DNA of 64,000 nt from Nitrospinota bacterium (GCA_016200345.1 JACQEX010000030.1:6242-70241), one strand, 5' to 3'. Counted from the stretch's first letter, positions 3,817 through 62,374 are shown. Notes: generated by a model from the letters alone, not told the origin. Program-made: numbers and translations.

Positions 3817-4902
3817 CTAGACGAAATTGACGTGATCCGGCGGATGGGTGAGGGCCCACAAAAACTCGTTGATGGCGTGCGTGCGGCAATTGGTGTAGCA
3901 GTCCTTGTGCACGTCAATTAGTTTGACCTTTTCAACCACCTCCCAATAGCGTTCGCTCTCGAAAATCTCCTTGAACGACTTTTCCACCAAGTCCCCCATG
4001 CGATACTCCTCCTCGTGATTTTCGAAAAAGTCGCCGCACGGATAGAGCCGCCCGTTGCCGCTGGAATAAAGCAAAAACGGAACGCCAAGGCACTGGTCGT
4101 AGGTCCTTACCCCTTTGTTCTGCACCTTGTTCCATTTAACGGTCACCTGGTAGTTGTCCGTGGTCTGCTTTTCCGCGTCGCTAAGGATGCTGGTGAAGCC
4201 CTCGTACTCGTCGAGCCGTTTATAAATGCCCAGGGCGTTGTACACCGTGTCCCCGCATTGTTTTACCACCAGATAATCCACGCCCAGCTCCTTGCCGAGT
4301 TTTGCGAGGCCGACCACCTGGTCCACGTCGTTGGGGGTAAGTACCATTTGCAGGCCGATGGTTACCTTGAGGCCTTTTTTTTGCTTCATCTCCACGCAAA
4401 ACCGAATTTTCTTCACCAGCGTGGCAAATTCCTTGCTCCCGTGTATGCGGCGATACCCAGCGTCGTCGGCGGCGCTTATGTTGAACCTTAGCCAGCTAAG
4501 GCGCTCCAAGGCCTCCTCCCCCTGCTTGCCGGTGTCCCAAAGCACGCCGTTGGTGCCGATGGATATGTCCACCCCAGCGTCCGTGCCGGCCACGACCGCC
4601 TCGTACACCGCAGGGTTCAGCAGAGGCTCGGACTCGCCGATAAACGCCATCGAGCGCACGCCGATGGCGCCGGCGTCCCTTACGTACCGCAACAGCGCGT
4701 CGCGCGGGAACACGACCTCGGACCCCTTTCTGTAAAGGTTGCCCTGAACCGCGCCAAAACAGTAGTCGCATTTGATGTTGCATCCCTTGCTCAGGCCGAC
4801 GTCAATGTGCAAAGGCGCCACCCTTTTACCCTGTTTCCAATCGTTGACTCTCTCAAGATGCCAAATAAGTTTGTGCCCGTCCATTACGTATCTGTCTTTC
4901 AC
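3817..4902 (-). CDS. Radical SAM protein (non-B12, Cys-rich SPASM-like C-terminus)
   Basis: CNIKCDYC CxxxCxxC motif near the N-terminus and a C-terminal Cys cluster. Paralog of the protein at 7994..9061, sharing the C-terminal DHVNF[VI] tail. Confidence 0.8.
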   Translation of the reverse strand: MKDRYVMDGHKLIWHLERVNDWKQGKRVAPLHIDVGLSKGCNIKCDYCFGAVQGNLYRKGSEVVFPRDALLRYVRDAGAIGVRSMAFIGESEPLLNPAVYEAVVAGTDAGVDISIGTNGVLWDTGKQGEEALERLSWLRFNISAADDAGYRRIHGSKEFATLVKKIRFCVEMKQKKGLKVTIGLQMVLTPNDVDQVVGLAKLGKELGVDYLVVKQCGDTVYNALGIYKRLDEYEGFTSILSDAEKQTTDNYQVTVKWNKVQNKGVRTYDQCLGVPFLLYSSGNGRLYPCGDFFENHEEEYRMGDLVEKSFKEIFESERYWEVVEKVKLIDVHKDCYTNCRTHAINEFLWALTHPPDHVNFV

Positions 4903-4907
4903 TTTCG

Positions 4908-5774
4908 TTACCTTTCAATAAAATTTAGGCCGTTGCAATATTCGCCGACCGCGTCGCGCCACGGTCGAAGCAATTTGATTTTTTCCGAGTTGAGCGCCGT
5001 TTTTGTGTTCTTTTTCCCGATCGAGGGAAAGTCGTTGTGCGAGACCTTCTCCACTTTTACGTCCTTGGCGCCTATTCGCGCGACGACCTCAACAATAAGG
5101 TCGTGCAACGAGGCCGTCCCCTCGTTCACCACGTGATACACCCCAAAGTCCGGGCCGGACTCCACTATCCTGCGAACCTCGCGGCCCACGTCCCTGCTGT
5201 AGGTCGGCGAGGCAAAAATATCCCCTGAAATTTTAAGCGCCTTCGCGCCGTCCCTGATTTTTTGAATCATGTTTTCGACAAACTGCCCGGTCTGTTTTGT
5301 GGTTTCCCCGAAAAGTATGGAGACGCGAATTATGTAATACCGTTTAGCCCACGCCTGTATCATGCAGTCGCCGCCGTATTTGGTCATGCCGTAAATGCTC
5401 ACCGGCCTCGCGGCGTCGCTCTCCACGTATCTATCACCCTTGCCGTCGTCAAACACGGCGTCCGAGCTAAAATGGACGAGAAGAAACCCTAATTCGTTCG
5501 ATAGCTCCGCCAAAAGTTTTGGGAACAACACGTTCAGCCTGAAGGCCGCCTCAGGGTTCTTTTCGCTCGGATCAATGCCCAAAAACGCCACGGTGTTGAA
5601 AACAATATCGGGCTTTGCTTCCTCTATCACTTTTCGCGTTTGGGCAAAATCCTCCGCCTTGAACCCTTTGCTGTTGAGTCCCGTCACGGAATATCCGCCC
5701 GTAAAAGCCGAGGTCAGGGCCAGGCCCAACTTGCCGGTATTTCCAAGAATGAGAACCTTAGGGCTTTTTGACAA
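4908..5774 (-). CDS. RmlD-like NAD(P)-dependent sugar nucleotide reductase (extended SDR)
   Basis: VLILGNTGKLG glycine-rich N-terminus and YGMTK (YxxxK) catalytic motif. Length and pattern resemble dTDP-4-dehydrorhamnose reductase. Confidence 0.65.
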   Translation of the reverse strand: MSKSPKVLILGNTGKLGLALTSAFTGGYSVTGLNSKGFKAEDFAQTRKVIEEAKPDIVFNTVAFLGIDPSEKNPEAAFRLNVLFPKLLAELSNELGFLLVHFSSDAVFDDGKGDRYVESDAARPVSIYGMTKYGGDCMIQAWAKRYYIIRVSILFGETTKQTGQFVENMIQKIRDGAKALKISGDIFASPTYSRDVGREVRRIVESGPDFGVYHVVNEGTASLHDLIVEVVARIGAKDVKVEKVSHNDFPSIGKKNTKTALNSEKIKLLRPWRDAVGEYCNGLNFIER

Positions 5775-6678
5775 TTTTAAACTCCGATGTAATCGCCCTG
5801 CGTATCTCCGACGCGGATATCCCGTAGTGCTCCCTCATTCCCAAATTGTTTTTTATTTTGTGAATGTACTCGTTTTTAACGCCGAGCTTTCTCAATTTGA
5901 CGTCCACGCCGTTTTCAATAATCCATTCGGCCATGATTGAACCAAGTCCGCCCTGGACGTAGTGCTCCTCCACGGTTATTACGGTTCTTGTATTTTTAAG
6001 CAGTTTTTTCAACCCGCTAAAATCCCCCTCGGTGAGCATCGGAACGGAGATTAACTGCGGCCTGGCCTTAAGCCCCTCGACGGCCTGCATAACCTCAATC
6101 CCGACGGAGCCGTGGAACAAAACGGTCACGCCGCTTCCCTTTTTCACCACTATGGGGGACTCCACGCTTTTCACTTTCTCAGAGTGTATTTTTGGCTCGC
6201 CGTACTTCGCAAGCCTGATGAACGCCGGTTTTTTGCTTTTTATCGCATATTTGGCGCACAATTCTGCCTCCAGCGGGTCGGCGGGGGAGAGCACCACAAG
6301 CCCCGGCAGTGTCCGGGCAACCCCCACGTCCTCGACGGAATAATGGGTGTGCCCCTGCGGTGCGTAGGTTACGCCGCTACCGATGCCGATAAGTGTGACG
6401 GGTAGCTTTTGGTAGCAGAGGTCGTTTCGCACCTGTTCGTAGCATCTGTAGAGCACAAACGGCGTGATGTTATACACAAAAACGTTGTATCCGGCCATGG
6501 CGAGACCGGCTGAAAAGCTAATCATGTTCTGCTCCGCCACGCCGAGGTTGAGGTAACGCTCCGGGAATTTTTTTTGAAATTCGTCCAAAACCCCGAAACC
6601 GGCGTCGCCGGTGACCACGAAAATGCTTTTTTCCTTCTCGGCGGCCTTGGTTATTGTGTCAATGACCGTGTTTCTCAT
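5758..6678 (-). CDS. Transketolase, C-terminal (pyrimidine-binding) subunit
   Basis: 306 aa, split transketolase B subunit pattern (FVVTGDAGFG, LNLGVAEQNM). Overlaps the N-terminal subunit gene by 4 nt. Confidence 0.8.
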   Translation of the reverse strand: MRNTVIDTITKAAEKEKSIFVVTGDAGFGVLDEFQKKFPERYLNLGVAEQNMISFSAGLAMAGYNVFVYNITPFVLYRCYEQVRNDLCYQKLPVTLIGIGSGVTYAPQGHTHYSVEDVGVARTLPGLVVLSPADPLEAELCAKYAIKSKKPAFIRLAKYGEPKIHSEKVKSVESPIVVKKGSGVTVLFHGSVGIEVMQAVEGLKARPQLISVPMLTEGDFSGLKKLLKNTRTVITVEEHYVQGGLGSIMAEWIIENGVDVKLRKLGVKNEYIHKIKNNLGMREHYGISASEIRRAITSEFKIVKKP

Positions 6679-7493
6679 TCCGCCGCCAGTTCTTCGAGGG
6701 CCTGTTTTTTAAACTCGTCCGTCACGATGAAATAATGCCATTTCATCTCGTTTTCCATGAAGGAAACTCCCTTCCCCTTGATGGTTTTTGCGATGATTAT
6801 TTTTGGTTTGCCGTTGGACGGTGCGTCCAATGCGCCGATTAGCTGGCGGTAATCATGGCCCCCCACTTCGTAAACCTGCCATCCGAACGCCTCCCACTTG
6901 GCCCTGACCGGCTCGTAATGGCAAATTTCCGTCGGGCGGCCGTAACCCTGAAGGTTGTTGTAGTCCAATAGCACCGTGAAGTTGTCAATTCCAAGCTTCG
7001 GGGCGAACAACGCCCCCTCCCATATCGAGCCTTCCTGCGACTCGCCGTCGCCTATGACGCTATAGACGTTTCGATTTTCACCCTTTTGTTTGAACACGTA
7101 CGCCATGCCCAATCCCATGTTGAACCCGTGACCAAGCGAACCGACCGACGCCTCGATTGCCTTGTTCGTAAACCGGTCAAGGTGGGCCGGTAGTTTGCCG
7201 TTGTTCTGAAGATATTGGAAAAGGTCGGGCTTGCTTATAAATCCCCTCAGCGTCAGGTTGGCGTAAAGCGCCATCGCCGAGTGCCCCTTACTGAGAATGA
7301 AAATATCCCGATTCTTCCAATCCTTCGGGTCTATTCGCAACTTATAAAAATAGAGCGTCGTAATCATGTCTACGCACGAAAGGGACGAGCCGATGTGCGC
7401 GCTTTTGGACTTGTTGGCAATTTCTATCATAAGCCGGCGAGCCTCGCGCGCCTTGGTCGAAATCAGTTTTTCCTCGGACTCTAGATTATCCAT
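6675..7493 (-). CDS. Transketolase, N-terminal (TPP-binding) subunit
   Basis: 272 aa, SAHIGSSLSC...GHGF...GDGESQEG transketolase TPP-binding motifs. Confidence 0.8.
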   Translation of the reverse strand: MDNLESEEKLISTKAREARRLMIEIANKSKSAHIGSSLSCVDMITTLYFYKLRIDPKDWKNRDIFILSKGHSAMALYANLTLRGFISKPDLFQYLQNNGKLPAHLDRFTNKAIEASVGSLGHGFNMGLGMAYVFKQKGENRNVYSVIGDGESQEGSIWEGALFAPKLGIDNFTVLLDYNNLQGYGRPTEICHYEPVRAKWEAFGWQVYEVGGHDYRQLIGALDAPSNGKPKIIIAKTIKGKGVSFMENEMKWHYFIVTDEFKKQALEELAAE

Positions 7494-7523
7494 TTTAAAT
7501 ATTTGCCGACTTGCGTTTTCCGA

Positions 7524-7979
7524 TTAATCGGCGCGCCCGGGCCCTTTCACGTATTGGTCCACGTATTCAAGCGTTTTAAGGTCATGTTCAATCATTTTTA
7601 ACCGGCGAGATTCTTCCACGTTAAACCAGCCATACCCCTGTCCTTCCCCCAAAATAATAGGAGTAACCCCGTCGTATCTTTCTACAAAAACGTTCAAATG
7701 ACATTCGACGGATTCTAACACAACGTCTTTGTGCAAAACAAAGCGCGGGAATTTTAGTTGGTATCCCAGTTCTTCCAAGGCCTCCCTTTTCACCGCGTCC
7801 TCGGCGGTTTCGGCCCCCTCGATGCTCCCCCCGAAAAACGCCCAGTATCCCGGAAGCCGTTCCGCGTCCTCGGTTCGATGTTGCAACAAATATTCGTGCT
7901 CGTCGTTGTGCAAAATCACAAGCGCGGCATTTATGGGCCTACGTCCGACCTTGGTTGTTCCCTCGCCATTTTTCGTCAA
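7524..7979 (-). CDS. NUDIX hydrolase
   Basis: Nudix box GGSIEGAETAEDAVKREALEELG. Confidence 0.7.
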   Translation of the reverse strand: MTKNGEGTTKVGRRPINAALVILHNDEHEYLLQHRTEDAERLPGYWAFFGGSIEGAETAEDAVKREALEELGYQLKFPRFVLHKDVVLESVECHLNVFVERYDGVTPIILGEGQGYGWFNVEESRRLKMIEHDLKTLEYVDQYVKGPGRAD

Positions 7980-7993
7980 ATTAAAATTCCTTG

Positions 7994-9061
7994 TTAGATA
8001 AAGTTAACGTGGTCAATCGGGTTTTTCAAATCCCAGATGTAACGGTTCACGGCGTCCATCCGGCAGTTCAGCCTGCATTCGCAGAGGTCAAGCTCCTCGT
8101 GAACCCACTTAAGCGACTTCATGCGCGCCTCCCCCTCCCAAATTTCCTTGAAGGTGTTGTCGTTTATGTTGCCGTATTTGAACCGTTCGTCCAGCAAAAA
8201 TTCCGCGCAACCCCACACAAAACCGCCCGCGTCGATGTAGGACCAAAAAGGGAGGGCGTGGCATTTTTTATAGTTGCGCGACCCCTCGTCCCATTTCTGC
8301 ATCGCGTTCGACCGGAAGATGACGCGAAAGTCCGGCGTGTTGAGTTTTTCAAGCTCCGGGCCGAGATACATATAATCCGTATACTTTACGTTCTCGTACT
8401 GGTGCGTGATGCTGTTCGGCATCTGCGAATACGGTTTTATTACAAGGTAGTCCATCCCCGCGTCACTGGCGACGCGGGCGAGGGTGACGGCCTCGGCATG
8501 ATTTTCGGGGAGTAGAATCATCTGCATGCCAAGCGTGCAACGATAGCCCTTTTCGTCCCTCACCTTTTTGGCGTACACCATGTTCTTAACCGCCTTGTCG
8601 AAGTCGGCGGGCTTCGTCCGGTGCACTTTTGAATATGTGTCCGGCGTTCCGGCGTTGATGCTCACTTTTATCCATTCCACGTGGCCGAGAATCTCGTCGG
8701 CTATTTCTTCCTTAAAAAGAACGGCGTTGGTCGTTATGCCAACGTCTATCCCCGATTTTTTGGTGTGCACGATTATCTGTGCGATGTCCTTGTGCAAAAA
8801 GGGCTCCCCGTCCCCGGCGTACATGATGCTTTTCAGGCCCAGGGCACCCATCTCGGTCAGGCGCTCCATAAATATCTTTGTGTCCAGATAACGCTTTTGG
8901 TACCCCATGAAATCCTTGCCGCAGTAGGTGCATCGGTGGTTGCACGGGCCGGAGGGGCTGATCTCCATATAAATGGGGTAGATATTTTTGCCGTCAAGCC
9001 ACTCCGAGACCCTTTTGGGGTGAAACATCAGCTTGTGGCTGTCTATCCTAAACTTATCCAT
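7994..9061 (-). CDS. Radical SAM protein (non-B12, SPASM-like), paralog of 3817..4902
   Basis: CNHRCTYC motif. Collinear with the 3817..4902 protein, including the C-terminal CECRLNC cluster and DHVNFI tail. Confidence 0.8.
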   Translation of the reverse strand: MDKFRIDSHKLMFHPKRVSEWLDGKNIYPIYMEISPSGPCNHRCTYCGKDFMGYQKRYLDTKIFMERLTEMGALGLKSIMYAGDGEPFLHKDIAQIIVHTKKSGIDVGITTNAVLFKEEIADEILGHVEWIKVSINAGTPDTYSKVHRTKPADFDKAVKNMVYAKKVRDEKGYRCTLGMQMILLPENHAEAVTLARVASDAGMDYLVIKPYSQMPNSITHQYENVKYTDYMYLGPELEKLNTPDFRVIFRSNAMQKWDEGSRNYKKCHALPFWSYIDAGGFVWGCAEFLLDERFKYGNINDNTFKEIWEGEARMKSLKWVHEELDLCECRLNCRMDAVNRYIWDLKNPIDHVNFI

Positions 9062-9632
9062 TTCTCGCCGCTAAAATAACGTCCAGAATGCAGTGGCAGA
9101 TTGCGGTGTGCAGTATCTCTACAGGCCCGTAGGCGCTGTCCGGCACATAAAAATTTACGTCGCCGAGTTTTGAAAGCGGATTGTCTTTTACAAATCCGGA
9201 CAACGTTATCACCTTGCATTTTTTGGCGCGGGCCGCATCCACGCCCCTTATTATGTTCTCCGATTTCCCGGAACTGCTTATCGCCACAAGCACGTCCCCC
9301 TCTTCGGCGAACATCTCGATGGGCTTCTCAAAAAGATGCTTGAAGCCGTAATCGTTTCCGATGCAGGTGAGAACGGACGAGTCGTTAAAGGCCACGGCCC
9401 GCATTCCGCCGTTTTTCCAAAAATCCGTGGACATATGGCTTGAGATGGACGCGCTGGCCCCGTTGCCGATGAACATAAGCTTCTTCCCGGCGTTGGTTTG
9501 GGCGACGACGAGTCCGCACGCCTCCGCAATCCCGTCGTGAAGGGAATCAAGCCGCTCGGCCCCGCGGGAGGCGGACATGGAATCCATGGCCTTCTTAAGG
9601 TTGTTGAAATAGGCTGTCGAAAGTTTTTGCAT
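9054..9632 (-). CDS. gmhA: Sedoheptulose-7-phosphate isomerase (SIS domain, GmhA-like)
   Basis: Collinear with E. coli GmhA across the SIS core (FIGNGASAS...CIGNDYGF...GDVLVAISSSGKS...KVITLSG). Confidence 0.7.
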   Translation of the reverse strand: MQKLSTAYFNNLKKAMDSMSASRGAERLDSLHDGIAEACGLVVAQTNAGKKLMFIGNGASASISSHMSTDFWKNGGMRAVAFNDSSVLTCIGNDYGFKHLFEKPIEMFAEEGDVLVAISSSGKSENIIRGVDAARAKKCKVITLSGFVKDNPLSKLGDVNFYVPDSAYGPVEILHTAICHCILDVILAARNG

Positions 9633-9642
9633 ATTTTCTCCG

Positions 9643-11187
9643 CTACTTCATTATCGTATGAATAAATTCCAACAGTTCATGTTTTTCGACCGATTTTTTG
9701 TTGCCGACTATCTGCACCGCAAGCGCGCCGACCACGTTCCCTATAAATGAGACCAATTCCATCGGCAGGCCGGAGGCGAGGCACGGCGCGGTGTATGCGA
9801 AAAAGGCGTCCCCCGCGCCGACGGTGTCCACGACCTTGGAGGTGAAGATCGGCGTGGAACTCAGCTCCCTCTTTTCGTTTATCCCTATGGATCCCCTTTT
9901 GCTCATCGTAACAATGACGTTGGCGGCGTTGATGACTTTTGACATTTTTTTTATTATGTCGTCCACGCTTCCAAACTTGTCCTGCGAGGCCAGCCGAACC
10001 TCCCCCTCGTCCAGGCAGACGAAAAACGGGTTGCTGTACTTGGTTATAAGGTTGTAGCCGGTGTTGGCCCCGTTGCTTTGGGTGTTGATTCCAAACCGAA
10101 CGCCGGACTCCTTGACCGCCTCGTAAATCTTTTGCGTTATGAAGCCGTGGCCAAAATCGGAGATTAAAACCACATCGTACCCCTTGGCCGTTTCCTTTAT
10201 GTGCGAGACAATTTTAGACTCAAGGTCTCCCTTCACGTATTCGTCGTTAAGATAGTTAACCTCGAACAGCTTTTGGTTGTTTTGTTGCTGTATGTACCTT
10301 TTCTTTATGATGGTCGGGCCGTCGGCGCGCGTGAAGAATTTCGCGTTGACTCCCGGCTTAAGATTTCTGGAGACAAACTCCTCCCTGGAGTCATGGGAAC
10401 CGAGGAGCGAGACAAGATGAACCTCCTTGCAAAAACCTGCGATATGGTTTGCGATTGCAAACGCGCCCCCGGCGAAAATCTCCTGGGATAGATATTTGTT
10501 CACCACCAGGTTCGCCTTGGAGGAACGACCAAGGGGCGTGGTGTAAAAATATTCGTCAATGATGCCGTCACCCACCAGCAAAACCTTCATGTCCTTAAGG
10601 TCGTCTATCGCCTTGGCGATCTGTTCAAAACTGTATTTTCGCTTAAAATCCCCCAAATACCTTTTTGTCTCCGGCGGATAATCGTCCAGAAAACTGTTGA
10701 TGACGTTTGAAGAGCTAAACGAGATGCCCGACGTCTGGCGTATGTCCACCTGCCCGAACAGCAGGGATTTCTCCGCCTCGGAAAGTTTTTCGTCTATGTT
10801 TCTCTGCGACGCCCTGTAGGACTGCCCCTTTGCAAAAATATCTGGCTTGATTGTCTTTAGGCACTCGTAGGTTATTTCGTCGTCCACAAGGCAAACGTAG
10901 TCCACCTGCGAGCAGGTGGCCGCGATTACGGCCCGCATCTCCTCCGGGAAAATGGGCCTTCCGGGGCCGAGCTTCACGTCCTTGTCCTTTACCACCGCGA
11001 CAACAAGCACGTCGCCAAGGGCCTTGGCGTCCTCGAGGTGCATGACTATTCCCGGATGTATGATGTCGTAAACTCCGAGACTGAGCACGACTTTTTTGCC
11101 GCCCGCCTGTAGCTCGCGCACCTTGGCTATAAGGTCGGACACCAACAAAATTTTAGGATGCTTGGGATTCAGTTTATAACCTGCCAT
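9643..11187 (-). CDS. Bifunctional sugar-phosphate nucleotidyltransferase / PfkB-family sugar kinase (HldE-like, domain order inverted)
   Basis: N-terminal cytidylyltransferase-fold (VYDIIHPG, HxGH-like) followed by a ribokinase/PfkB domain with the C-terminal DTVGAGDAF signature. E. coli HldE has kinase first, then adenylyltransferase. Confidence 0.7.
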   Translation of the reverse strand: MAGYKLNPKHPKILLVSDLIAKVRELQAGGKKVVLSLGVYDIIHPGIVMHLEDAKALGDVLVVAVVKDKDVKLGPGRPIFPEEMRAVIAATCSQVDYVCLVDDEITYECLKTIKPDIFAKGQSYRASQRNIDEKLSEAEKSLLFGQVDIRQTSGISFSSSNVINSFLDDYPPETKRYLGDFKRKYSFEQIAKAIDDLKDMKVLLVGDGIIDEYFYTTPLGRSSKANLVVNKYLSQEIFAGGAFAIANHIAGFCKEVHLVSLLGSHDSREEFVSRNLKPGVNAKFFTRADGPTIIKKRYIQQQNNQKLFEVNYLNDEYVKGDLESKIVSHIKETAKGYDVVLISDFGHGFITQKIYEAVKESGVRFGINTQSNGANTGYNLITKYSNPFFVCLDEGEVRLASQDKFGSVDDIIKKMSKVINAANVIVTMSKRGSIGINEKRELSSTPIFTSKVVDTVGAGDAFFAYTAPCLASGLPMELVSFIGNVVGALAVQIVGNKKSVEKHELLEFIHTIMK

Positions 11188-11189
11188 TT

Positions 11190-11660
11190 TTATCTCTTCA
11201 AAAAATGTTCGTTAAGCAATTTTGTGGAGGAGAAAACAATCTCGTGGGTGAATCTCAATTCGGCCCCGATTTCTTGGATGACTTTTGCCTCCCTCTGGAT
11301 TTTGCCGGTCTTGTCCTCCAGTTTCTCAAACTCCTGCCCCTTCACGTAAATATCGGGCCTTAGCAACCTAAGCGTCTCCTCCGCGGTCGGCCATTTGTTG
11401 ACGGCCACGTAGTCAACGCACTCCAACGCCGCAATGGATTCGGCGCGCAAGTCCTGATTGTAAACCGGCCTCCCCGGCCCTTTATCAACATATTTGTCCT
11501 CGGTAAGAGTCACCACCAGCACGTCCCCGAATTTTTTGGCCGCCTGAAAATATTTGATGTGTCCCGGATGCAACAGGTCAAAACAGCCGTGGCAGTGCAC
11601 AATCTTCTTTCCCGACGATTTCAATTCCTTTATCACCGGGGCGAGGGCGTCCAAATCCAT
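11190..11660 (-). CDS. Cytidylyltransferase-fold protein (TagD/RfaE domain II-like)
   Basis: HCHGCFDLLHPGH nucleotidyltransferase motif. Start set at the internal ATG 11660 (MDLDALAPV), which has a GGAGGA RBS 13 nt upstream; the longer track ORF would overlap the upstream gene by 230 nt. Confidence 0.65.
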   Translation of the reverse strand: MDLDALAPVIKELKSSGKKIVHCHGCFDLLHPGHIKYFQAAKKFGDVLVVTLTEDKYVDKGPGRPVYNQDLRAESIAALECVDYVAVNKWPTAEETLRLLRPDIYVKGQEFEKLEDKTGKIQREAKVIQEIGAELRFTHEIVFSSTKLLNEHFLKR

Positions 11661-11665
11661 TATTT

Positions 11666-12676
11666 TCAACGTCTCCTCCCCTTTGCGGTTGTGGCGAGCG
11701 GCCCGCGTTCGAACCGGTTTATTTGCGACCACAACTCCGGAATCGTGTCGCCGTGCCGCCCCTTCACGTAAAAGCTCTCGCCGCCGTCCTGCACCGTCCT
11801 CACCAACATCGTCTTCCACGGCCTGAAATAATACTGTGCGTCGCTCTTTTTCGGCTCCTTCCCGACGTCGCCGGAAAGTTGGTGAAGGTCGCACACCAGC
11901 GTCGAAAATTTTGCTATTCTCCCTCGCTTCTGCCGGGCGATGTTTCGCGCCATGCTCAGCGCCTTCAGGTAAATTTCTGGCGCCATCACGGAACTTCCGA
12001 AATTCATGGCGACCCCGCCCTCAAGGTTTTGAACGACCGAGGCGTACCTTAAAAAATCGTTGTACGACAACGCGCCTGTTGCAGCGCCGTCGCAATTTGG
12101 GTGCTCGTGCAATATGTCGTACCCTATTCCCACGTGGATGGTAACCGGTATGCCGAGCCGGTAGCCCGCGGCAAGCACGCTTATCTCCTTGTGCGGGAAA
12201 TTGCCATTTTCAATCACCCCGCCGATCGCCTCGCCCATCCCGACCTTTTTGTCCTTTTTATGCGCCTTGTTTATGTGGTCGTTTAAAAATCCGGTTTCCT
12301 TCCAAAGGCCGAACTCGCCGCGCCGTATATATTTACTAACGCTTTCCGTCGTGGCGCCAATCAGCGCAAACTCATAATCGTGAATCATCCCGGAGCCGTT
12401 AAACGCGAGGCAGGACACATATCCGCGCTCCATGAGGTCAATTAAATACCGCTGAACGCCGTCCCGCAAAACGTGGCCCCCCGCCATCAGTATCACCGAC
12501 CTTCCGTTGCGGCGCGCCCTTACGATTCGTTTCCCAACCTCCGCCAAAGAGTTGTTGCCGCATGGAACCGGGTTCAAACCCATAATCGCGCCGACGTTTA
12601 GGTCGTTGACCCTTTTGCCAAGGTCTTTGACGAGCAATTTTTTCCTGTCAATCATCTTGTTCATCTTCCGGGTCAA
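11666..12676 (-). CDS. Deoxyhypusine-synthase-like protein (tentative)
   Basis: Segment SVILMAGGHVLRDGVQRYLIDLMERGYVSCLAFNGSGMIHD aligns by eye with the DHS motif [35 protein letters not shown]. The assignment comes from memory only. Confidence 0.35.
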   Translation of the reverse strand: MTRKMNKMIDRKKLLVKDLGKRVNDLNVGAIMGLNPVPCGNNSLAEVGKRIVRARRNGRSVILMAGGHVLRDGVQRYLIDLMERGYVSCLAFNGSGMIHDYEFALIGATTESVSKYIRRGEFGLWKETGFLNDHINKAHKKDKKVGMGEAIGGVIENGNFPHKEISVLAAGYRLGIPVTIHVGIGYDILHEHPNCDGAATGALSYNDFLRYASVVQNLEGGVAMNFGSSVMAPEIYLKALSMARNIARQKRGRIAKFSTLVCDLHQLSGDVGKEPKKSDAQYYFRPWKTMLVRTVQDGGESFYVKGRHGDTIPELWSQINRFERGPLATTAKGRRR

Positions 12677-13818
12677 CCTTGGGCGCCTTGAAACTCTTTT
12701 TTCAAAGGCACCCCCAGTTTTTGCATTAATTTAACGAACCTGGTGTTGCCCGGGTCGTAGTGCATTATTTTTTCCATTGTTTCACGGCTGGATTTCAACC
12801 ACTCTTCCTCCCCGACTCTTTTCAAATATCCAAGAATCCTTACGACCTCTTCTTCCGAGGGAATATTCGACCAGAAAGGCCCCGAATCCCCGATGCGGGC
12901 CGGCCAGCCAAAATCAAACGCATCACCAAACTCGCTTATCAAACGCTTTCGAAACGTAAAGAGCGCGGTCTTTATTCCGCGCGCGGCGGTCTCGTACAAC
13001 AAATTCGACTCCGTGCCAACCACGTACTCGCTGGCGCAGGCCAGCTCGTAACTGCTCCACTTCCGTTTCCTCGGGGAATACGTCCACCCTTCCTTCCCAA
13101 GCAGGGTCTCGTATTTTTCCCTCTCTTCCGGGAATTCCGGGGCGCTCCGTCCGGCGACGAACAACTCAAAATTTGATTCGACGCAGAATTTCTTTAACAG
13201 CGGCAGGACGATGCGCTCTGATACCACAAATTCGTCCCATCCTATTATCCTCTTCGTGCCGGGCAGAACAACCAGGGACTCGTTTGGCTCGTAGACCGAC
13301 ACAAACACGACCCTGTTTTTTTTAATCGGCAAACCTGGAAATAAGTTGTTTCTAAAACATCCGATTATCTCGTAATTCCCGCGCACATATTCCTTATATT
13401 TTTCCCCTATCTCACGCGCGTGAACCAGCATGTAGTCAACCCGCCAGTCCTTGCCCTGTTTTATCTCGTCCATCGCGTCGAACGAGCGCCACCCGTTTTG
13501 TATGAAGACGGTGGTGATTTCCGGAAATGCCTTTTTTAGCGTGTAAAATCTGGGATTGTTGTCAATAAAGGTCAGGCAGACCCTCGGCGACACAAATCCG
13601 ACGTACAACTCGAAATAGTTTTTGCGGAGCAGGACGCTCAGTATTAGGACATAAAGGTTGAACGACTCCCCCCTTGTGTCCAAAATATGAACCCCCGCCG
13701 GATCCAAATACTCAAAAATTTCCTCGGATCCGACCCGGTCGAAAATGAGAATTTCCGCCTTTTGTGGTCTGCGAAAACCAAAACTACGGCTTTTTAAAAC
13801 CAGCCTGACCTTGCTCAC
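12673..13818 (-). CDS. Hypothetical polysaccharide biosynthesis protein (possible TagF-like/GT-B fold)
   Basis: 381 aa. C-terminal VVGTESNLLYETAARGIKTALF resembles the TagF/GT-B donor-binding segment. Weak. Confidence 0.3.
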   Translation of the reverse strand: MSKVRLVLKSRSFGFRRPQKAEILIFDRVGSEEIFEYLDPAGVHILDTRGESFNLYVLILSVLLRKNYFELYVGFVSPRVCLTFIDNNPRFYTLKKAFPEITTVFIQNGWRSFDAMDEIKQGKDWRVDYMLVHAREIGEKYKEYVRGNYEIIGCFRNNLFPGLPIKKNRVVFVSVYEPNESLVVLPGTKRIIGWDEFVVSERIVLPLLKKFCVESNFELFVAGRSAPEFPEEREKYETLLGKEGWTYSPRKRKWSSYELACASEYVVGTESNLLYETAARGIKTALFTFRKRLISEFGDAFDFGWPARIGDSGPFWSNIPSEEEVVRILGYLKRVGEEEWLKSSRETMEKIMHYDPGNTRFVKLMQKLGVPLKKEFQGAQG

Positions 13819-18674: not shown

Positions 18675-19460
18675 TTAAAAAAAAGTTTTATATAGCGACG
18701 GGTTGCGATCCTGCGTCGTTGAAAATGTTTTTTTAAATTCCGAGACGCGACCCGCGTCCACGTCAAAAACGTCAAGCTCCCCGTCCGTCATTATGGGCGA
18801 AAGTTTTTCACCGTTTGGATTGATTATTTGCGTGCTTTTAACATACTCCAGACCGTTGCCGTCCGTTCCGACGCGGTTTACGCCGGCCACGAAAATCTGG
18901 TTTTCAATGGCCCTGGCCTTTAGCAGGGCGTTCCAATGGTCAATCCGCTTTGCCGGCCAGTTGGCGATGTTGATTATCAGTTCGCAGTTTTTGGCGAGCG
19001 CTCCGTAAATTTCCGGGAACCGTAGGTCGTAGCAAACCGTCAGCCCCACCGTCATGTCTCCAATCCGGGAAAAACATATTTTCTCCCCGCCGCTGAAGAC
19101 CTTGTCCTCGCCGGCAAAGGAAAACGGGTGTATCTTGGCGTATGTCCCGACGACCGCCCCGTTTGGGTCCAACATCACGCAATTATTAGTCGCCTTTTGT
19201 CCGTCCCGAAAAACAACGCCGAAAACAACGGCAATTTTAAATTCCGCCGAGAGTTTTTGAAAAAACTCCACGGTCTCTGACTCCCGCCCGTCCTCCGCCG
19301 TAGATTTAACGTTCATCGAAAAGGATGTCAGCGTCATTTCCGGGAAAACGACAAGCCCGGCGGATTGTTCCTTCGCCGTTTTAACGAAGGCGCGACACGC
19401 GTTCTTGTTGGCTTCCTTGTCTTCCCAGGCCTGGTTAAGCGAGACGAGCGCAACGCGCAT
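18675..19460 (-). CDS. Carbon-nitrogen hydrolase family protein (nitrilase/amidase superfamily)
   Basis: Glu (VVFPE), Lys (YAKIHPF) and Cys (VCYDLRFPE) catalytic triad pattern. Confidence 0.75.
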   Translation of the reverse strand: MRVALVSLNQAWEDKEANKNACRAFVKTAKEQSAGLVVFPEMTLTSFSMNVKSTAEDGRESETVEFFQKLSAEFKIAVVFGVVFRDGQKATNNCVMLDPNGAVVGTYAKIHPFSFAGEDKVFSGGEKICFSRIGDMTVGLTVCYDLRFPEIYGALAKNCELIINIANWPAKRIDHWNALLKARAIENQIFVAGVNRVGTDGNGLEYVKSTQIINPNGEKLSPIMTDGELDVFDVDAGRVSEFKKTFSTTQDRNPSLYKTFF

Positions 19461-20812: not shown

Positions 20813-21547
20813 TCACTTCGGCATTCCTATATTTTTTACGCCATTGTGCCTCATAATCGCCTCGGCCGTCACCATGTCATACTCGTCGTCAACCTCCAGC
20901 GACTTCCACTTTGGCACCTCATAGCCGATTGTGCCGCCGTGATAAAACGTCTTTTTGTCGAGATACACGTCCGTTTGACAGATGTAAATGCTTCCCTCCA
21001 GAAAGAAAACGTCCTGTATGTCCTGTCTTCGCAAAACCCTCATGTCCTCGTTTTCATAGCCGACCAAAAAGTCATCGCTCTTTTTCTTCACCAAAAACGC
21101 GGGATTTTGTCCCTCGGTTTTGCAAATCCCGACTATCGCGGAAGCCTTTGGATGCTCCGACAACTGCTCGATGGAATTATAAACGTCCCGTTTGTCCCTC
21201 AATGGGGAGGTCGGCTCCAGCAGGACTATATAGTCGAACTTTTTGCCCAGCTCGTTTTTATAAAACTCCACGGCGTGCTCGATTACGGAGAACGAGGTCG
21301 AAACGTCCGTGGCAAGCTCCTTCGGCCTTAGAAACGGAACCTTGGCCCCGAATCGCTCCGCCACGTCGGCAATCTCCCGGCTGTCTGTGGTCACCATCAG
21401 TTCGTCAATGTATTCGCACCCCAAACCGGCGTTTATGCTCCAGGCTATCAACGGCTCGCCGCACAGATCCTTGATGTTTTTGCCGGGCAGTCCCTTGGAG
21501 CCGCCGCGCGCCGGAACAATGCCGAGATAACTTTTTCCTTTGAACAT
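20813..21547 (-). CDS. neuA: Acylneuraminate (nonulosonate) cytidylyltransferase, CMP-NulO synthetase
   Basis: GIVPARGGSKGLPGKN N-terminal motif. Start at the internal ATG 21547..21545, overlapping the upstream stop by 1 nt (TAATG). The 51-codon 5' extension in the track ORF was rejected. Confidence 0.8.
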   Translation of the reverse strand: MFKGKSYLGIVPARGGSKGLPGKNIKDLCGEPLIAWSINAGLGCEYIDELMVTTDSREIADVAERFGAKVPFLRPKELATDVSTSFSVIEHAVEFYKNELGKKFDYIVLLEPTSPLRDKRDVYNSIEQLSEHPKASAIVGICKTEGQNPAFLVKKKSDDFLVGYENEDMRVLRRQDIQDVFFLEGSIYICQTDVYLDKKTFYHGGTIGYEVPKWKSLEVDDEYDMVTAEAIMRHNGVKNIGMPK

Positions 21548-22617
21548 TAATTTTTCCCGGAGTTCCTCTTGCCGACCTCGATGATGGCCGACTGCAAATC
21601 GTCCCTTCTGCCGACGTCCAGCCATGGCTCGTGCATCGGATAGGCGACGATACTTTTCCCGGCGGCCTGCAAACGCCCGAACAAAACCGGCATGTCGCAA
21701 TGGGCGTCCTTGCTTAGGGCGCCCAGAACATCCGGCTCGAGAACGTAGACCCCCGCGTTTATGTGGCTACGGGCGATGGGCTTCTCCTCGAAACCGACTA
21801 TGTCCACGCCTTTTGTCTGCACCACCCCGAACGGATGTTGCCATTCGTAAACGCGCACGGCCATCGTCGCCTTGGCCTTGTGGAAGATGTGAAAATCCAA
21901 AAGTTCCCCGTAGCGAATGTCCGTGATAACGTCCCCGTTGGTCACGACAAACGGTGCGCTTGGAACGGGGTTGAGCAGGCTCAACGCGCCCGCGGTGCCC
22001 AGCGCCTCCTTTTCCCGGAGGTAGTCTATCTTCACCTTCAACCGCTCCCCGTCGCCAAAATAATCCTCTATCATCTGCCCGAGGTAATGAACGGCGAGCA
22101 CGAAACGGTTGAAACCTTCCAGTTTTGCCCGTTCGATTATGTGCTCCAGCATCGGTTTTCCGGCGATTGGCAAAAGCGGTTTCGGGCAGGACTCCGTGTG
22201 TGGCCGAAGTCTGGTTCCCTTCCCACCCGCCATTATCACCATAAGGTTGTCCCGCCCCGCCGGTTTTGCGATTTCGTCCCAAAGATGCAGGCCGACGACG
22301 TGGTGGTTCTCGTCCACCACCGGTATCTGTTGCAGTTTATTCGCCAGCATCATCTGCCTGATGGTGTCGCGCCCAACTCCGGGCGGCACCAACATGGCGT
22401 CGCGCTGGATTACGCTGTCTATTGAACTGCTGAGGTCCAGCCCGCGCAGAAGTCCGCGGCGAATGTCTCCGTCCGAAATCGTCCCCTCCAACGCGCCGCT
22501 ATCGTTGACGACCATGACGATTTTAATGGCCACTTTGTCAAGGTTGCTAATCGCCTGTTGTATTGTGGAATGAATTGGCAGGATGGCCTGCCGCCAGCGC
22601 TCTTCAGCCAAAGTCAT
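21547..22617 (-). CDS. CBS-domain-pair sugar-phosphate nucleotidyltransferase (PtmE-like)
   Basis: Two CBS domains (N-terminal 120 aa) followed by IMAGGKGTRLRP and the NTP-transferase fold. In Campylobacter the PtmE protein has this architecture and makes GDP-GlcN in the legionaminic acid pathway. Confidence 0.7.
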   Translation of the reverse strand: MTLAEERWRQAILPIHSTIQQAISNLDKVAIKIVMVVNDSGALEGTISDGDIRRGLLRGLDLSSSIDSVIQRDAMLVPPGVGRDTIRQMMLANKLQQIPVVDENHHVVGLHLWDEIAKPAGRDNLMVIMAGGKGTRLRPHTESCPKPLLPIAGKPMLEHIIERAKLEGFNRFVLAVHYLGQMIEDYFGDGERLKVKIDYLREKEALGTAGALSLLNPVPSAPFVVTNGDVITDIRYGELLDFHIFHKAKATMAVRVYEWQHPFGVVQTKGVDIVGFEEKPIARSHINAGVYVLEPDVLGALSKDAHCDMPVLFGRLQAAGKSIVAYPMHEPWLDVGRRDDLQSAIIEVGKRNSGKN

Positions 22618-22664
22618 TCGCGCCTCCCTATTCTTGTGCCGTTCATAAAATCAAACCACCCTTG

Positions 22665-23816
22665 TTAAATGTCAAAAAATTTCTTCTTCAAGACGTCGCG
22701 CAACGGGAACGAGGCCAGGACTTTAACTATTTTTTTGCTCGCCCCCGGCCCGCCGTACGGGTTGACGACCTTCCTCAAAACTTTTGAGAACCCCGGCGAA
22801 TATAATTTTTCAAACGCCGCTGTGATTGACGCCTCGGACGGGTCGCAGTCAATCACGCTGTCGGCCCTCACCCTCCCCTTTTGCCTGTCGCCTATGTTGA
22901 TGGCGCCGATTTTAACGGAAGGCGCCTCGGTGAGGCCGCTCGAGCTGTTGCCCACGACGGCATCCACGTATCTTAGGGCGCTTAGGTATCGCAACTGGCC
23001 TAGAGAGTCGTGGGCGCACGCCTTGTCGCCGTTGCGCGCCACATAATCGTCAATCATCCGGTTGATAACCCTGCCTTCCATGTCGGCGTTGGCCTTGGTG
23101 AATATAATTTTTGTCTCTTTTAACCGGTCAATAACGTTCAATAGGGATTGAAACTGCGCCTTCGCGGACTGTTTTTCCAACGTCACGGGATGGAACGTAA
23201 CCAAAATATTTTTGGGCCCCAGCCTAAGGCCGACGGCGCGCTCAAATTTTTCCTTGGACAAAATTGGAAGTTTTTGGATGTTGTCGAGGCCCGGCGTCCC
23301 CGTTTTAAACACTCTTCGAGGATCCTCGCCAAGCTGAACAACGCGGTTTTTGTACTCCTCCGTCGCGACAAAATGCAAATGGCTCATCTTTGTTACGGAG
23401 TGCCGAATCGCCTCGTCAAACGCCCCCTCCGTGGATTCCCCGCCGTGGATGTGGGCGATCGGAATTCTTGCGACCATCGCAGCGCTTGCGGCGCTGAAAA
23501 TTTCGAATCGGTCGCCCAACACGACCACGATGTCCGGCCTTAGCTCCTCGAAGGCCTCCGCGAAGGATATTTGCGCGAGTCCCATCGCCTTTGAAATTCC
23601 AATCTGGGAGTCCGACGACAAAAGCATCTCAATTTTTTTATCAATGTCGAAATCTTTCTCGACCTCCCTATAAGTCAGCCCAAACTCCGGCGAGAGGTGC
23701 ATCCCCGTCGCAATAATCTGAAGTTTCAGCCCGCGAGTTTTTTCAATTTCTTTCATCACCCAAAAAAGATGCCCGTACTCGGCCCGGGTTCCGGTGACAA
23801 CGCAAATCTTTCTCAA
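22665..23816 (-). CDS. neuC: UDP/GDP-N-acetylglucosamine 2-epimerase (hydrolysing), NeuC/LegG family
   Basis: KICVVTGTRAEYG...HIHGGE...HPVT motifs of hydrolysing 2-epimerases. Confidence 0.85.
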   Translation of the reverse strand: MRKICVVTGTRAEYGHLFWVMKEIEKTRGLKLQIIATGMHLSPEFGLTYREVEKDFDIDKKIEMLLSSDSQIGISKAMGLAQISFAEAFEELRPDIVVVLGDRFEIFSAASAAMVARIPIAHIHGGESTEGAFDEAIRHSVTKMSHLHFVATEEYKNRVVQLGEDPRRVFKTGTPGLDNIQKLPILSKEKFERAVGLRLGPKNILVTFHPVTLEKQSAKAQFQSLLNVIDRLKETKIIFTKANADMEGRVINRMIDDYVARNGDKACAHDSLGQLRYLSALRYVDAVVGNSSSGLTEAPSVKIGAINIGDRQKGRVRADSVIDCDPSEASITAAFEKLYSPGFSKVLRKVVNPYGGPGASKKIVKVLASFPLRDVLKKKFFDI

Positions 23817-24808
23817 ATTAGCTCGTCCGTATTATAGTCTTTTTTGGCGACCTGTCCCAAAATCTCGTTCCACCTCATGGGGTTTATCCCCCCGCCGGGA
23901 CGCTTCACGGTTATATTTTCCGTCGTAAACGTTTCGCCGGCCTTTACGCCCCTTGCCGCGACTATGCTTTTGCGCGCAATGGAAATATTTTTAATCTCGC
24001 TCGGGGCGGGCTTTTTTATTCCGTCTCCCACGGCCTTTTCCACGTTTCTAATCGCCCTCACCATTTCCTTTAGTTCGTCCGGCTCCAAACTTGCCTTGTG
24101 GTCCGGCCCTTCCATTTTCCTGTCGAGCGTGAAGTGTTTTTCAATCACGCTTGCTCCCATAGCAACGGCGGCTATGGCCGCGTCTATGCCCAGCGTGTGG
24201 TCCGAGTAACCAACCCTCACGCCGAAGGCGTCTTTAATGGTCTGCATGGCGCGGAGATTGACGTCCTCCATCGGGCATGGATATTCGGTGGTGGCGTGCA
24301 AAACGGTTATTTTTTCCAGCGGAGTGCCCGCCTTTGTGAGCACCTCCAAAGCGTCCTTGATTTCCCCGAGATCCGCCATTCCGGTCGAAATTATCACCTC
24401 TTTGCGCAACGCGCCGATTTTCCGCAGATACGGAAGATTGGTAATTTCGCCGCTTGGTATCTTAAAAATATTCAGTCCCATTCCGCTCAACAAATCCACG
24501 CTGTCCAGATCGAACGGCGTCGAGAGAAACATAATCCCTTTCTTGGAACAGACGTCCATCAGCGTTCGGTGGGCCGCCTCGTTAAGCTCTAGTCTTTTTA
24601 TCATTTCGTACTGCGATTCGGCCGAGTCGGTGGTCTTTTTTTGGTACTCCGCCTTCTGCGCCCCCTTGCCGACGACCTTGTCCGCCTTGAAAGTCTGGAA
24701 CTTCACCGCGTCGGCCCCGGCTGAGACGGCAACGTCAACCAGCTTTTCGGCCAGCGCGATATCCCCGTTATGGTTTACGCCGGCCTCCGCGATTATAAAA
24801 ACACCCAC
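23813..24808 (-). CDS. neuB: N-acetylneuraminate (nonulosonate) synthase, NeuB family
   Basis: IIAEAGVNHNGD...KFQTF...GYSDHT motifs plus a C-terminal SAF domain. Overlaps neuC by 4 nt. Confidence 0.85.
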   Translation of the reverse strand: MGVFIIAEAGVNHNGDIALAEKLVDVAVSAGADAVKFQTFKADKVVGKGAQKAEYQKKTTDSAESQYEMIKRLELNEAAHRTLMDVCSKKGIMFLSTPFDLDSVDLLSGMGLNIFKIPSGEITNLPYLRKIGALRKEVIISTGMADLGEIKDALEVLTKAGTPLEKITVLHATTEYPCPMEDVNLRAMQTIKDAFGVRVGYSDHTLGIDAAIAAVAMGASVIEKHFTLDRKMEGPDHKASLEPDELKEMVRAIRNVEKAVGDGIKKPAPSEIKNISIARKSIVAARGVKAGETFTTENITVKRPGGGINPMRWNEILGQVAKKDYNTDELI

Positions 24809-29572: not shown

Positions 29573-29597
29573 TTTGTCAGATATTTCCGAAAGCCGC

Positions 29598-54354: not shown

Positions 54355-54465
54355 CAGTCAGTACCCCCAAAAAAAAGTTTTAAATAATTAATCTTAAAAA
54401 CTTGTCATCCCATTACCCCGAACACGTAACATAAAATGCAAAGTCGCCGTCCCGCGGCTTTGCCG

Positions 54466-62372: not shown

Positions 62373-62374
62373 GT

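Follow-up and report, generated by a model that had tools for sequence, protein, structure and literature searches.

What does a bacterium do with a transketolase encoded amongst the genes for a surface sugar? The question is raised by a 64,000-nucleotide stretch of DNA from a Nitrospinota bacterium (GCA_016200345.1 JACQEX010000030.1:6242-70241), here called the window. Its minus strand carries a pair of genes resembling the two halves of a split transketolase (TK), a GmhA-like isomerase of the SIS family, a protein in which a nucleotidyltransferase (NT) domain is followed by a PfkB kinase domain, and a separate small NT. A sequence-only reading of the window had proposed a self-sufficient heptose module in which a dedicated TK supplies sedoheptulose-7-phosphate (S7P) directly to GmhA. 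The open reading frames (ORFs) for all of these proteins are present on the minus strand where that reading placed them. However, their residues and their company in other genomes suggest a different role for the TK-like pair: the gene cassette to which they belong may build, and then tailor, a nucleotide-activated heptose destined for a cell-surface glycan. This rests on sequence and on analogy with known systems, and we consider it evenly balanced between right and wrong. The genes of the cassette, in their order of transcription from the GSU2086-family gene to the RmlD-like reductase gene and on into its extended part, are as follows, with domain calls from Pfam and NCBIfam profile searches of the window ORFs.

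11666..12676, minus strand: GSU2086-family protein, first gene of the conserved cassette (NCBIfam NF052581)
11190..11669, minus strand: stand-alone NT, HldC/RfaE-domain-II-like (CTP_transf_like; rfaE_dom_II 110 bits, cut-off 181.5)
9643-11187, minus strand: 514-residue NT-then-PfkB fusion (Pfam CTP_transf_like at residues 38-137, PfkB at 237-500)
10693..11121, minus strand: NT domain of the fusion, called NT* (about residues 23-165; rfaE_dom_II 87 bits, cut-off 181.5)
9664..10605, minus strand: PfkB kinase domain of the fusion (about residues 195-508; rfaE_dom_I 119 bits, cut-off 345)
9054..9632, minus strand: GmhA-like SIS sugar-phosphate isomerase (Pfam SIS_2/SIS)
7994..9061, minus strand: radical S-adenosylmethionine (rSAM)/SPASM enzyme, conserved cassette member (Pfam Radical_SAM and SPASM)
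7524..7979, minus strand: NUDIX hydrolase, accessory in some cassettes (Pfam NUDIX 55 bits)
6675..7493, minus strand: TK-like N subunit, binding thiamine diphosphate (ThDP) through its pyrophosphate (PP) domain (Transketolase_N 128 bits)
5758..6678, minus strand: TK-like C subunit, with pyrimidine (Pyr) and C-terminal domains (Transket_pyr and Transketolase_C)
4908..5774, minus strand: RmlD-like reductase for nucleoside diphosphate (NDP)-4-keto-sugars (RmlD_sub_bind 191 bits)
3817..4902, minus strand: second rSAM/SPASM enzyme, in the extended cassette (Pfam)

The TK-like pair had been described as adjoining GmhA; the two share an operon, with the NUDIX and first rSAM-SPASM genes between them. 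On the cofactor and donor side the pair looks like a transketolase. The N subunit keeps the GDG...N motif and the equivalents of H26, H66, H100 and H261 of Escherichia coli transketolase (EcTK), and in the C subunit the Glu that activates ThDP is retained, as is H473; the cofactor motif and donor-side His residues fit the use of a ketol (dihydroxyethyl-ThDP) donor. The split transketolase of C. hydrogenoformans (ChTK; 6yak/6yaj; PMC7661550) has the same two-gene architecture, matching the N subunit at 214 bits (N chain, 6yak) and the C subunit at 139 bits, with its ThDP- and metal-binding and donor-side His residues kept in the window pair. The acceptor side of the C subunit is altered, with DAGFG in place of DLSKS (S385 to Gly), GIGSG in place of ATHAG (H461 to Gly), APQG in place of GEDG (D469 to Gln) and Lys in place of R520. 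In the yeast and E. coli transketolase structures, residues of the S385, H461, D469 and R520 type contact the phosphate group and the C2-OH of the substrate. ChTK retains EcTK R358, S385, D469 and R520 (PMC7661550), and its H461 is visible in the alignment with the window, where the C subunit has Gly, Gly, Gln and Lys at 385, 461, 469 and 520.

These losses are not peculiar to the window. They are common to all seven cassette-linked C subunits that were aligned, and S385, H461 and D469 are lost also in all 150 nearest C-subunit representatives. H461 and D469 occur together in none of these 150 best representatives of 50% clusters (31-77% identity), H461 is Gly in 146 of the 151 aligned sequences, and the Glu and H473 are invariant. 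Against the best model, the transketolase equivalog NF004559, the N and C subunits score 213.6 and 124.2 bits (cut-off 488), and the C subunit scores 130 bits with DXS models compared with 124 with TK, both far under the cut-off.

The setting of the pair in other cassettes points the same way (sister loci are referred to by number, such as L007). The ThDP enzyme is the variable part of the cassette, at 25-64% identity compared with 50-85% for the core. Pyruvate dehydrogenase (PDH)-E1 α/β subunits replace the TK-like pair in L007, L038 and L050, and both pairs are found in L014 and L028. Of two sets of cassettes, 9 of 10 in the first and 11 of 13 in the second encode a ThDP enzyme; amongst 13 GSU2086 loci that lack the inverted fusion, only one does so. 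Members of the TK-like C clade are found fused to a zinc-dependent alcohol dehydrogenase (Zn-ADH), to a methyltransferase, or to a Methyltransf_23 plus Methyltransf_14 module, which is the C-terminal domain of NDP-sugar C-methyltransferases. The TK-like genes mostly lie downstream of the activation genes, beside reductase, rSAM and methyltransferase genes. This position, the loss of acceptor residues and the exchange with PDH-E1 together argue for a role in sugar tailoring rather than S7P supply; judged by sequence and by analogy, the TK-like enzyme would most likely branch or extend an oxidised NDP-sugar by a C2 unit.

The TK-like proteins of the sister loci are themselves diverse. A subtype of the N subunit with Cys for the His at EcTK H100 occurs at L010 16001-16801, L004 13199-14059 and L005 12088-12936; its C-subunit partner in L004 and L005 appears as a short ORF (167-189 residues) with the Pyr domain alone and no Transketolase_C. 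A Scalindua locus (L004 1-1893) also encodes a 631-residue single-chain TK-like protein, upstream of a CMP-transferase gene, that keeps His461 but departs from the canonical TK pattern in its DLSADCGL and AGPGKSH segments.

Could the pair nevertheless be an ordinary dedicated split transketolase, feeding S7P to GmhA in a self-contained NDP-heptose module? Transketolase chemistry does yield S7P, the SIS protein needs a ketose phosphate, and the N subunit, with all its donor-side His residues, matches an active split TK at 214 bits. In L005 and L023 the SIS gene is immediately followed by the TK-like genes, and the TalC/FSA-type gene beside GmhB in L012 shows that pentose-phosphate-type enzymes do occur in cassettes. 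However, the acceptor residues S385, H461 and D469 are missing from the C subunit and from every one of its 150 nearest representatives, PDH-E1 α/β, which substitutes in three cassettes, is unable to make S7P, the pair is far less conserved than the activation genes, and its clade includes C-methyltransferase and ADH fusions. Nor is the module self-contained, since no GmhB/HAD phosphatase and no HldD was found amongst the ORFs scanned across the 64-kb window. Direct S7P supply by the TK-like pair is thus unlikely, and the two central claims of the sequence-only reading, self-sufficiency and a dedicated S7P source, are not borne out.

L012, from a metagenome-assembled genome (MAG) labelled 'uncultured archaeon' (GCA_902386255), carries a TalC/FSA-type gene and a bona fide GmhB ahead of the cassette (7297-8498). 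The TalC/FSA-type enzyme scores 346 bits (cut-off 246), and the HAD phosphatase, directly upstream of GSU2086, passes the GmhB equivalog with 202 bits (cut-off 178); a GmhB-like gene has the same position in L023. The L012 genes form a possible dedicated S7P-supply and phosphatase pair, lacking in the window. This TalC/FSA-type enzyme makes a stronger candidate supplier of S7P than does the TK-like pair of L012, which lies further downstream amongst rSAM and methyltransferase genes.

A tailoring role has precedents amongst the ThDP enzymes that branch keto-sugars. Three kinds are recognised: YerE-like enzymes, E1 α/β-type αKADH2 enzymes, which transfer acetyl from pyruvate, and split-gene TKs (PMC12247030; also PMC4753412). 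AviB1/AviB2, Pau11/Pau12 and KbDH are examples of the αKADH2 type (PMC12247030, PMC4753412), and split-gene TKs have been proposed to transfer a hydroxyacetyl group in miharamycin and amipurimycin biosynthesis (PMC12247030). The window's split TK-like pair likewise lies beside NDP-sugar genes and a ketoreductase, the cassette pair is interchangeable with E1 α/β at the same position, and its clade has C-methyltransferase fusions. Thus, the TK/E1 exchange, the RmlD-like ketoreductase and an rSAM-SPASM enzyme resembling BlsE, MoaA and DesII together fit the sugar-branching picture and favour tailoring. The likeness to the miharamycin and amipurimycin TKs is one of gene context and description rather than of compared sequences, and the settings differ: actinomycete antibiotic clusters there; here a surface-glycan operon, uncultured Gram-negative phyla and a presumed heptose nucleotide.

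The pathway that we propose for the cassette, with each catalytic step, substrate, nucleotide and product drawn from sequence, gene context and literature analogy, would run as follows. The GmhA-like SIS protein would isomerise a ketose phosphate, most likely S7P, and the PfkB domain of the fusion would phosphorylate C1. A GmhB-type phosphatase, encoded in some sister cassettes though not in the window, would remove the distal phosphate, and the stand-alone NT would then make the NDP-heptose. The GSU2086-family protein, the rSAM-SPASM enzyme or both may create a carbonyl on the NDP-sugar, onto which the TK-like ThDP enzyme would transfer a two-carbon (glycolaldehyde/hydroxyacetyl) unit. The RmlD-like reductase, the second rSAM-SPASM enzyme and methyltransferases would finish the sugar.

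A bolder version of this pathway is more tentative, and we think it less probable than the outline above. The product would be a heptose not described before, branched or extended by C2 to nine carbons and made for the surface glycans of many uncultured phyla, amongst them Nitrospinae, anammox Planctomycetes, Omnitrophica and Nitrospirota; the TK clade without H461 and D469 would provide the first TKs that tailor sugars outside actinomycete antibiotic pathways, GSU2086 and the rSAM-SPASM enzyme would be new nucleotide-sugar oxidisers, and NT* would be a pseudo-enzyme holding the nucleotide-sugar for its partners.

The two-carbon unit might instead be added before activation, with the TK-like enzyme extending an unusual aldose to an octulose or nonulose that the SIS, PfkB and NT proteins would convert to an NDP-octose or NDP-nonose. 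Lincosamide octose synthesis, with its LmbR transaldolase, LmbN isomerase, kinase, phosphatase and nucleotidyltransferase, provides a model. The altered acceptor site suggests a non-standard aldose, the cassette SIS protein is a distinct GmhA variant (E65D, Q172E and a 5-residue deletion, conserved across cassettes), all the profile scores lie under the heptose cut-offs, and a NeuC-like hydrolysing epimerase encoded in the operon makes a free N-acetylated aldose. However, the L012 GmhB passes the cut-off of the heptose-1,7-bisphosphate phosphatase equivalog, E1 α/β would yield a methyl ketone, which is no substrate for an aldose-ketose isomerase, the TK-like genes usually come after rSAM genes and beside reductase and methyltransferase genes, and type-C loci and Geobacter have GSU2086, kinase and GmhA with no ThDP enzyme. 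Extension before activation therefore seems improbable, much as direct S7P supply does.

Tailoring of an activated heptose presupposes that the activation genes act on heptose. By sequence, the SIS, kinase and NT proteins are all closest to the ADP-heptose enzymes GmhA, HldA and HldC. The best NCBIfam matches of the SIS protein are phosphoheptose isomerases (97-104 bits, cut-offs 209-276), as is its best PDB match (2i22, E 1e-23). Of the catalytic and Zn residues, in E. coli GmhA numbering (the reference agrees with the segment in the PDB-search alignment), it keeps H61 and H180 and has Asp for E65 and Glu for Q172, as do all seven cassette copies examined. The PfkB domain, with GGAFAIAN and DTVGAGDAF motifs, scores 119 bits over the full rfaE_dom_I model and 53 bits with ribokinase, and the nearest solved kinase is HldA (4e84). 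It is thus of the heptose type, carrying the GAGD motif with the heptose-kinase model best though below the 345-bit equivalog cut-off; grouping with ribokinases, which would have told against the sequence-only reading, is not seen. Scores below the curated cut-offs mean that the activation enzymes are not orthologues in a strict sense. The strongest support for a heptose substrate comes from the GmhB genes of sister cassettes.

Of the two routes that had been put forward for nucleotide activation, the ADP type fits the GmhA-, HldA- and HldC-like enzymes, and the GDP type does not. GDP-heptose routes use GHMP kinases and NTP_transferase-family enzymes. The ADP-heptose pathway of lipopolysaccharide synthesis (GmhA, HldE or HldA plus HldC, GmhB) draws on the same SIS, PfkB and cytidylyltransferase-like NT families. 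In contrast to it, the window has the NT-then-kinase order, a fused NT without the second His of its motif, an extra stand-alone NT, no GmhB or HldD, and scores under all curated cut-offs, and the cassette is always linked to a GSU2086 (deoxyhypusine-synthase-like) protein, an rSAM-SPASM enzyme and a ThDP enzyme. The NUDIX hydrolase was considered as the missing phosphatase; this is unsupported, the gene being absent from L008, L010, L012 and L013.

That the activation genes handle some other sugar or polyol phosphate, their GmhA/HldE likeness reflecting family membership only, is the least probable reading of all, for although every score is well under its equivalog cut-off and the matches to solved HldA and HldC are weak (E 8e-9 and 4e-13), three independent enzymes all match the heptose pathway best, GmhB adjoins the cassette in L012 and L023, and the Geobacter genes hldE and gmhA show a genetic link to GSU2086.

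The order of domains in the fusion is the reverse of that in HldE, in which PfkB comes first and the NT second: Pfam and NCBIfam both place the NT domain before the kinase (rfaE_dom_II at residues 23-128, rfaE_dom_I at 195-508), and the protein scores 166.3 bits against the HldE equivalog NF008454 (cut-off 521). As had been suggested from the inverted order, the sequences imply that the fusion must have arisen in an event separate from the one that gave canonical HldE. It is not, however, special to this locus. In all of the best 120 homologues (57-78% identity to the query) PF01467 precedes PF00294; they are about 510 residues long, except for four longer triple fusions, and the family, with identities of 57-62%, extends to at least eight phyla, its lineages including Nitrospinae, Scalindua, Brocadia, other Planctomycetes, Omnitrophica, Nitrospirota/Thermodesulfovibrionales, Elusimicrobiota, Proteobacteria and a MAG labelled archaeon. 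For comparison, Tang et al. 2024 described three 'HENase' architectures: mono-domain NT, kinase/NT and isomerase/kinase/NT (PMC11573728, PMC11461863).

The two NT domains differ in their catalytic motif. The small NT has GCFDLLHPGH, an intact HxGH, together with FSST. NT* has GVYDIIHPGIV, in which the second His of HxGH is gone, so that it lacks the intact motif of HldE and HldC. In the motif (H/T)xGH, the second His is shared by the whole cytidylyltransferase superfamily, and mutagenesis of glycerol-3-phosphate cytidylyltransferase showed that catalysis needs it. HPG[I/V/M/L] is found in the fused NT of 115 of the 120 closest homologues; one of the other five has no match to the pattern and four are the triple fusions, whose intact N-terminal NT the motif search meets first. 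In these triple fusions (P0006, P0007, P0009 and P0099; 668-692 residues) the small NT is joined N-terminally to NT*-PfkB, giving an intact HxGH NT, then NT* with HPG[VI], then PfkB. NT* and the small NT are paralogues, 36% identical (E 5e-32). The Arg of the STTR5 motif, which is not strictly predictive of nucleotide specificity, is absent from both (FSST and FSSS).

A metagenome scan seeded with a GSU2086 alignment, followed by tblastn synteny of the loci, gave a similar picture. All eight window-type fusions lack the second His, and each is accompanied by a separate small NT. A second fusion subtype (33-36% identical to the query) lies upstream of GSU2086 with no separate NT gene; it keeps H[IV]GH in 12 of 12 cases, and its NT domain is about 60% identical to the window's small NT. 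Variants are also found: L041 has separate NT and kinase genes, and L040 and L043 have a small NT together with a fusion that has an intact HVGH. The simplest reading of these sequences is that an NT and a kinase fused, that the NT was then duplicated, and that catalysis was lost in the fused copy. The absence of the second His from NT* across homologues suggests that NT* probably no longer catalyses nucleotidyl transfer and that the stand-alone small NT is probably the working transferase rather than an extra one. Since NT* is still conserved (mean identity across homologues 55.5%, compared with 63.2% for the kinase domain), we assume that it binds a nucleotide or acts as a scaffold.

The small NT had been placed at 11190..11660. 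The gene is there, but its start is more likely to be a TTG at 11669, which is preceded at a distance of 5-7 nt by a Shine-Dalgarno sequence, GGAGG, and shares bases with the stop codon of the gene before it (TTGA). From this start the protein has 159 residues, matching gene-caller output on identical contigs.

Several points weigh against the building and tailoring of an activated heptose. The mapping of C-subunit residues comes from sequence alignment (HMMER and MAFFT, with ChTK-C as reference) and not from a structure; R358 and Lys520 remain and could bind a phosphate, so that the acceptor may be a phosphorylated one; and both the TK-like genes directly after SIS in L005 and L023 and the transaldolase-type gene in L012 are compatible with precursor supply. 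The 13 putative split-gene sugar-branching TKs counted so far are all from Streptomycetes, and none has been assayed in vitro (PMC12247030). As to the heptose, the window lacks GmhB and HldD, the catalytic Glu65 of GmhA is Asp in its SIS protein, and the HldE, rfaE_dom_I, rfaE_dom_II and GmhA scores are all under the curated NCBIfam cut-offs, so the substrate could be another ketose phosphate. Finally, the well-conserved NT* may have another activity.

If a carbonyl is to be created on the NDP-sugar, the GSU2086-family protein and the first rSAM-SPASM enzyme are the candidates. The former belongs clearly to its family (NF052581, 363.4 bits, cut-off 250), for which a homologue search gave more than 8,000 members. 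A PDB search with its sequence gave chance-level matches only. The best Foldseek match in the PDB of its AF2 model (pLDDT 84) is deoxyhypusine synthase (7cmc, E 7e-9, TM 0.53), and the others include ArgZ/AgrE C-terminal domains and the LOR/SDH-like 3c2q (E to 1e-6, TM about 0.5). The deoxyhypusine-synthase-like fold normally binds NAD. From the model, the protein probably has this NAD-binding fold, and it may carry out an NAD-dependent step on the heptose, an oxidation or epimerisation. Some family members match Pfam DS (PF01916), which agrees with a fold shared with deoxyhypusine synthase and the ArgZ/AgrE domains, but identity to these is only 10-15% and the context of the GSU2086 family is sugar biosynthesis. 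The protein is 53-82% identical across phyla, adjoining heptose-type kinase genes, and in G. sulfurreducens the GSU2086 gene is flanked by hldE and gmhA, whose phenotype is shared by transposon mutants of GSU2086 (Tn-seq; PMC5585712). It does not appear to substitute for GmhB, since the two genes are neighbours in L012 and L023. Some loci depart from the usual arrangement: in L083 (9130-11931), which lacks the inverted fusion, GSU2086 has a HAD hydrolase gene on one side and that of a stand-alone heptose-type PfkB kinase on the other, and other copies, such as that of L055, have no sugar genes nearby.

The first rSAM-SPASM enzyme (50-65% identity in sister cassettes) has BlsE (7vob, E 3e-7), MoaA and DesII as its nearest solved relatives, all of which use nucleoside- or nucleotide-linked substrates; by analogy it may oxidise or dehydrate a nucleotide-sugar. 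The NUDIX gene follows it, as in L014 and L007. The RmlD-like reductase scores 190.8 bits against TIGR01214 (cut-off 224), with RmlD 1vl0 as its best PDB match (E 2e-30); its gene overlaps the end of the TK-like C gene, a position kept in L014. Homologues of the second rSAM-SPASM enzyme (39-45% identity) follow TK or E1 genes in L004, L007, L008 and L014.

The shared cassette comprises the GSU2086-family gene, the small NT, the fusion, in some cases SIS, the rSAM-SPASM gene, in some cases NUDIX, and the ThDP enzyme, with a tail of reductases, rSAM enzymes and methyltransferases; genes for NeuB and a CMP-transferase frequently occur in the vicinity. The same order is found in Scalindua, Nitrohelix, Omnitrophica, Thermodesulfovibrionales, the archaeon-labelled MAG and many metagenome contigs, and L014 (Thermodesulfovibrionales) matches the window's gene order from GSU2086 to the second rSAM-SPASM gene. 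The small NT is 66-85% identical in sister cassettes. The cassette is thus a conserved, horizontally spread and uncharacterised unit, found across several phyla; its gene content, domain order, motif states and conservation, and its co-occurrence with GmhB, E1 α/β and nonulosonic-acid genes, are observed directly. Our literature search for the combination of nonulosonic/heptose, transketolase, radical-SAM and nucleotidyltransferase genes found nothing.

If the tailoring pathway is correct, a very common unannotated environmental cassette encodes a new branch of heptose biochemistry. A role would be assigned to the large GSU2086 family and to a large clade of 'transketolases' now counted as pentose-phosphate-pathway enzymes in annotation and metabolic models, and NT* would be a clear case in nature of an NT domain that was duplicated and, once fused, ceased to be catalytic. 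In practice, where split 'transketolase' genes lie in glycan loci, they should not be taken as a sign of the pentose-phosphate pathway when the metabolism of a MAG is reconstructed.

The heptose-type genes are embedded in a cell-surface glycan operon of about 30 kb that also makes nonulosonic acid. In the ORF map, all genes on the minus strand from 982 to 30890 are co-oriented and closely spaced or overlapping, and a scan of the window found promoter-like and terminator-like sites in no excess over chance, which together fit a single operon. An Rfam scan of the whole window gave no match. Further features of the operon and window are:

30351-30890, minus strand: NusG paralogue at the head of the operon, resembling RfaH/UpxY-type operon-specific antiterminators of polysaccharide loci
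20813..24808, minus strand: nonulosonic-acid genes for NeuB, a NeuC-like hydrolysing 2-epimerase, a CBS-nucleotidyltransferase and a PseF-like CMP-transferase (Pfam/NCBIfam)
982-2514, 3817-4902, 7994-9061, 13896-15284, 16647-18671 and 28478-29683, minus strand, and 37430-38815, plus strand: radical-SAM genes (Pfam)

Downstream of the NusG paralogue, in order of transcription, come an rSAM-SPASM enzyme, a short-chain dehydrogenase/reductase (SDR), a TylF methyltransferase, a DegT aminotransferase and a methyltransferase. Amongst the nonulosonic-acid genes, NeuB scores 348 bits, Epimerase_2 309 bits and PseF (TIGR03584) 151 bits. The PseF-like ORF (20813-21700, minus strand) shares about 150 nt with the gene upstream, and Pfam matches it only from residue 60 onwards; its true start is probably internal to the listed ORF. 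Amid these genes, a glutamate-1-semialdehyde-aminomutase-like protein (18675-20767, minus strand; NCBIfam PRK06209, 680 bits, cut-off 486) is encoded in translational coupling with a CN-hydrolase/amidase, and the two may form a pair for amino-group or N-acyl tailoring. After the CN-hydrolase come a B12-rSAM enzyme, a 434-residue protein with no family match (15324-16628, minus strand), another B12-rSAM enzyme and, just upstream of the cassette, an LA_1612-family 'putative O-antigen biosynthesis protein' (12673-13818, minus strand; TIGR04441, 328 bits), of a family named after Leptospira; the GSU2086-family gene follows. Beyond the RmlD-like reductase, the operon continues with the second rSAM-SPASM enzyme, an FkbM methyltransferase, a NUDIX protein and a B12-rSAM enzyme.

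The rest of the window is ordinary chromosome. It includes a 914-residue ORF (32142-34886, minus strand) with no Pfam match at E 1e-5 and a dcw cluster (53134-63951, minus strand; ftsZ, ftsA, ftsQ, murB, murC, murG, ftsW, murD, mraY and a murF fragment), whose ordinary character indicates that the glycan operon is chromosomal. The exact sequence of the fusion protein was also found by homologue search, annotated at NCBI from a Nitrospinae MAG. None of the window's radical-SAM genes attains the cut-off of any curated NCBIfam family. There are seven in the operon and an eighth on the plus strand, four of the eight being B12-binding and three of the SPASM type, unusually many radical enzymes for a locus that makes a surface glycan.

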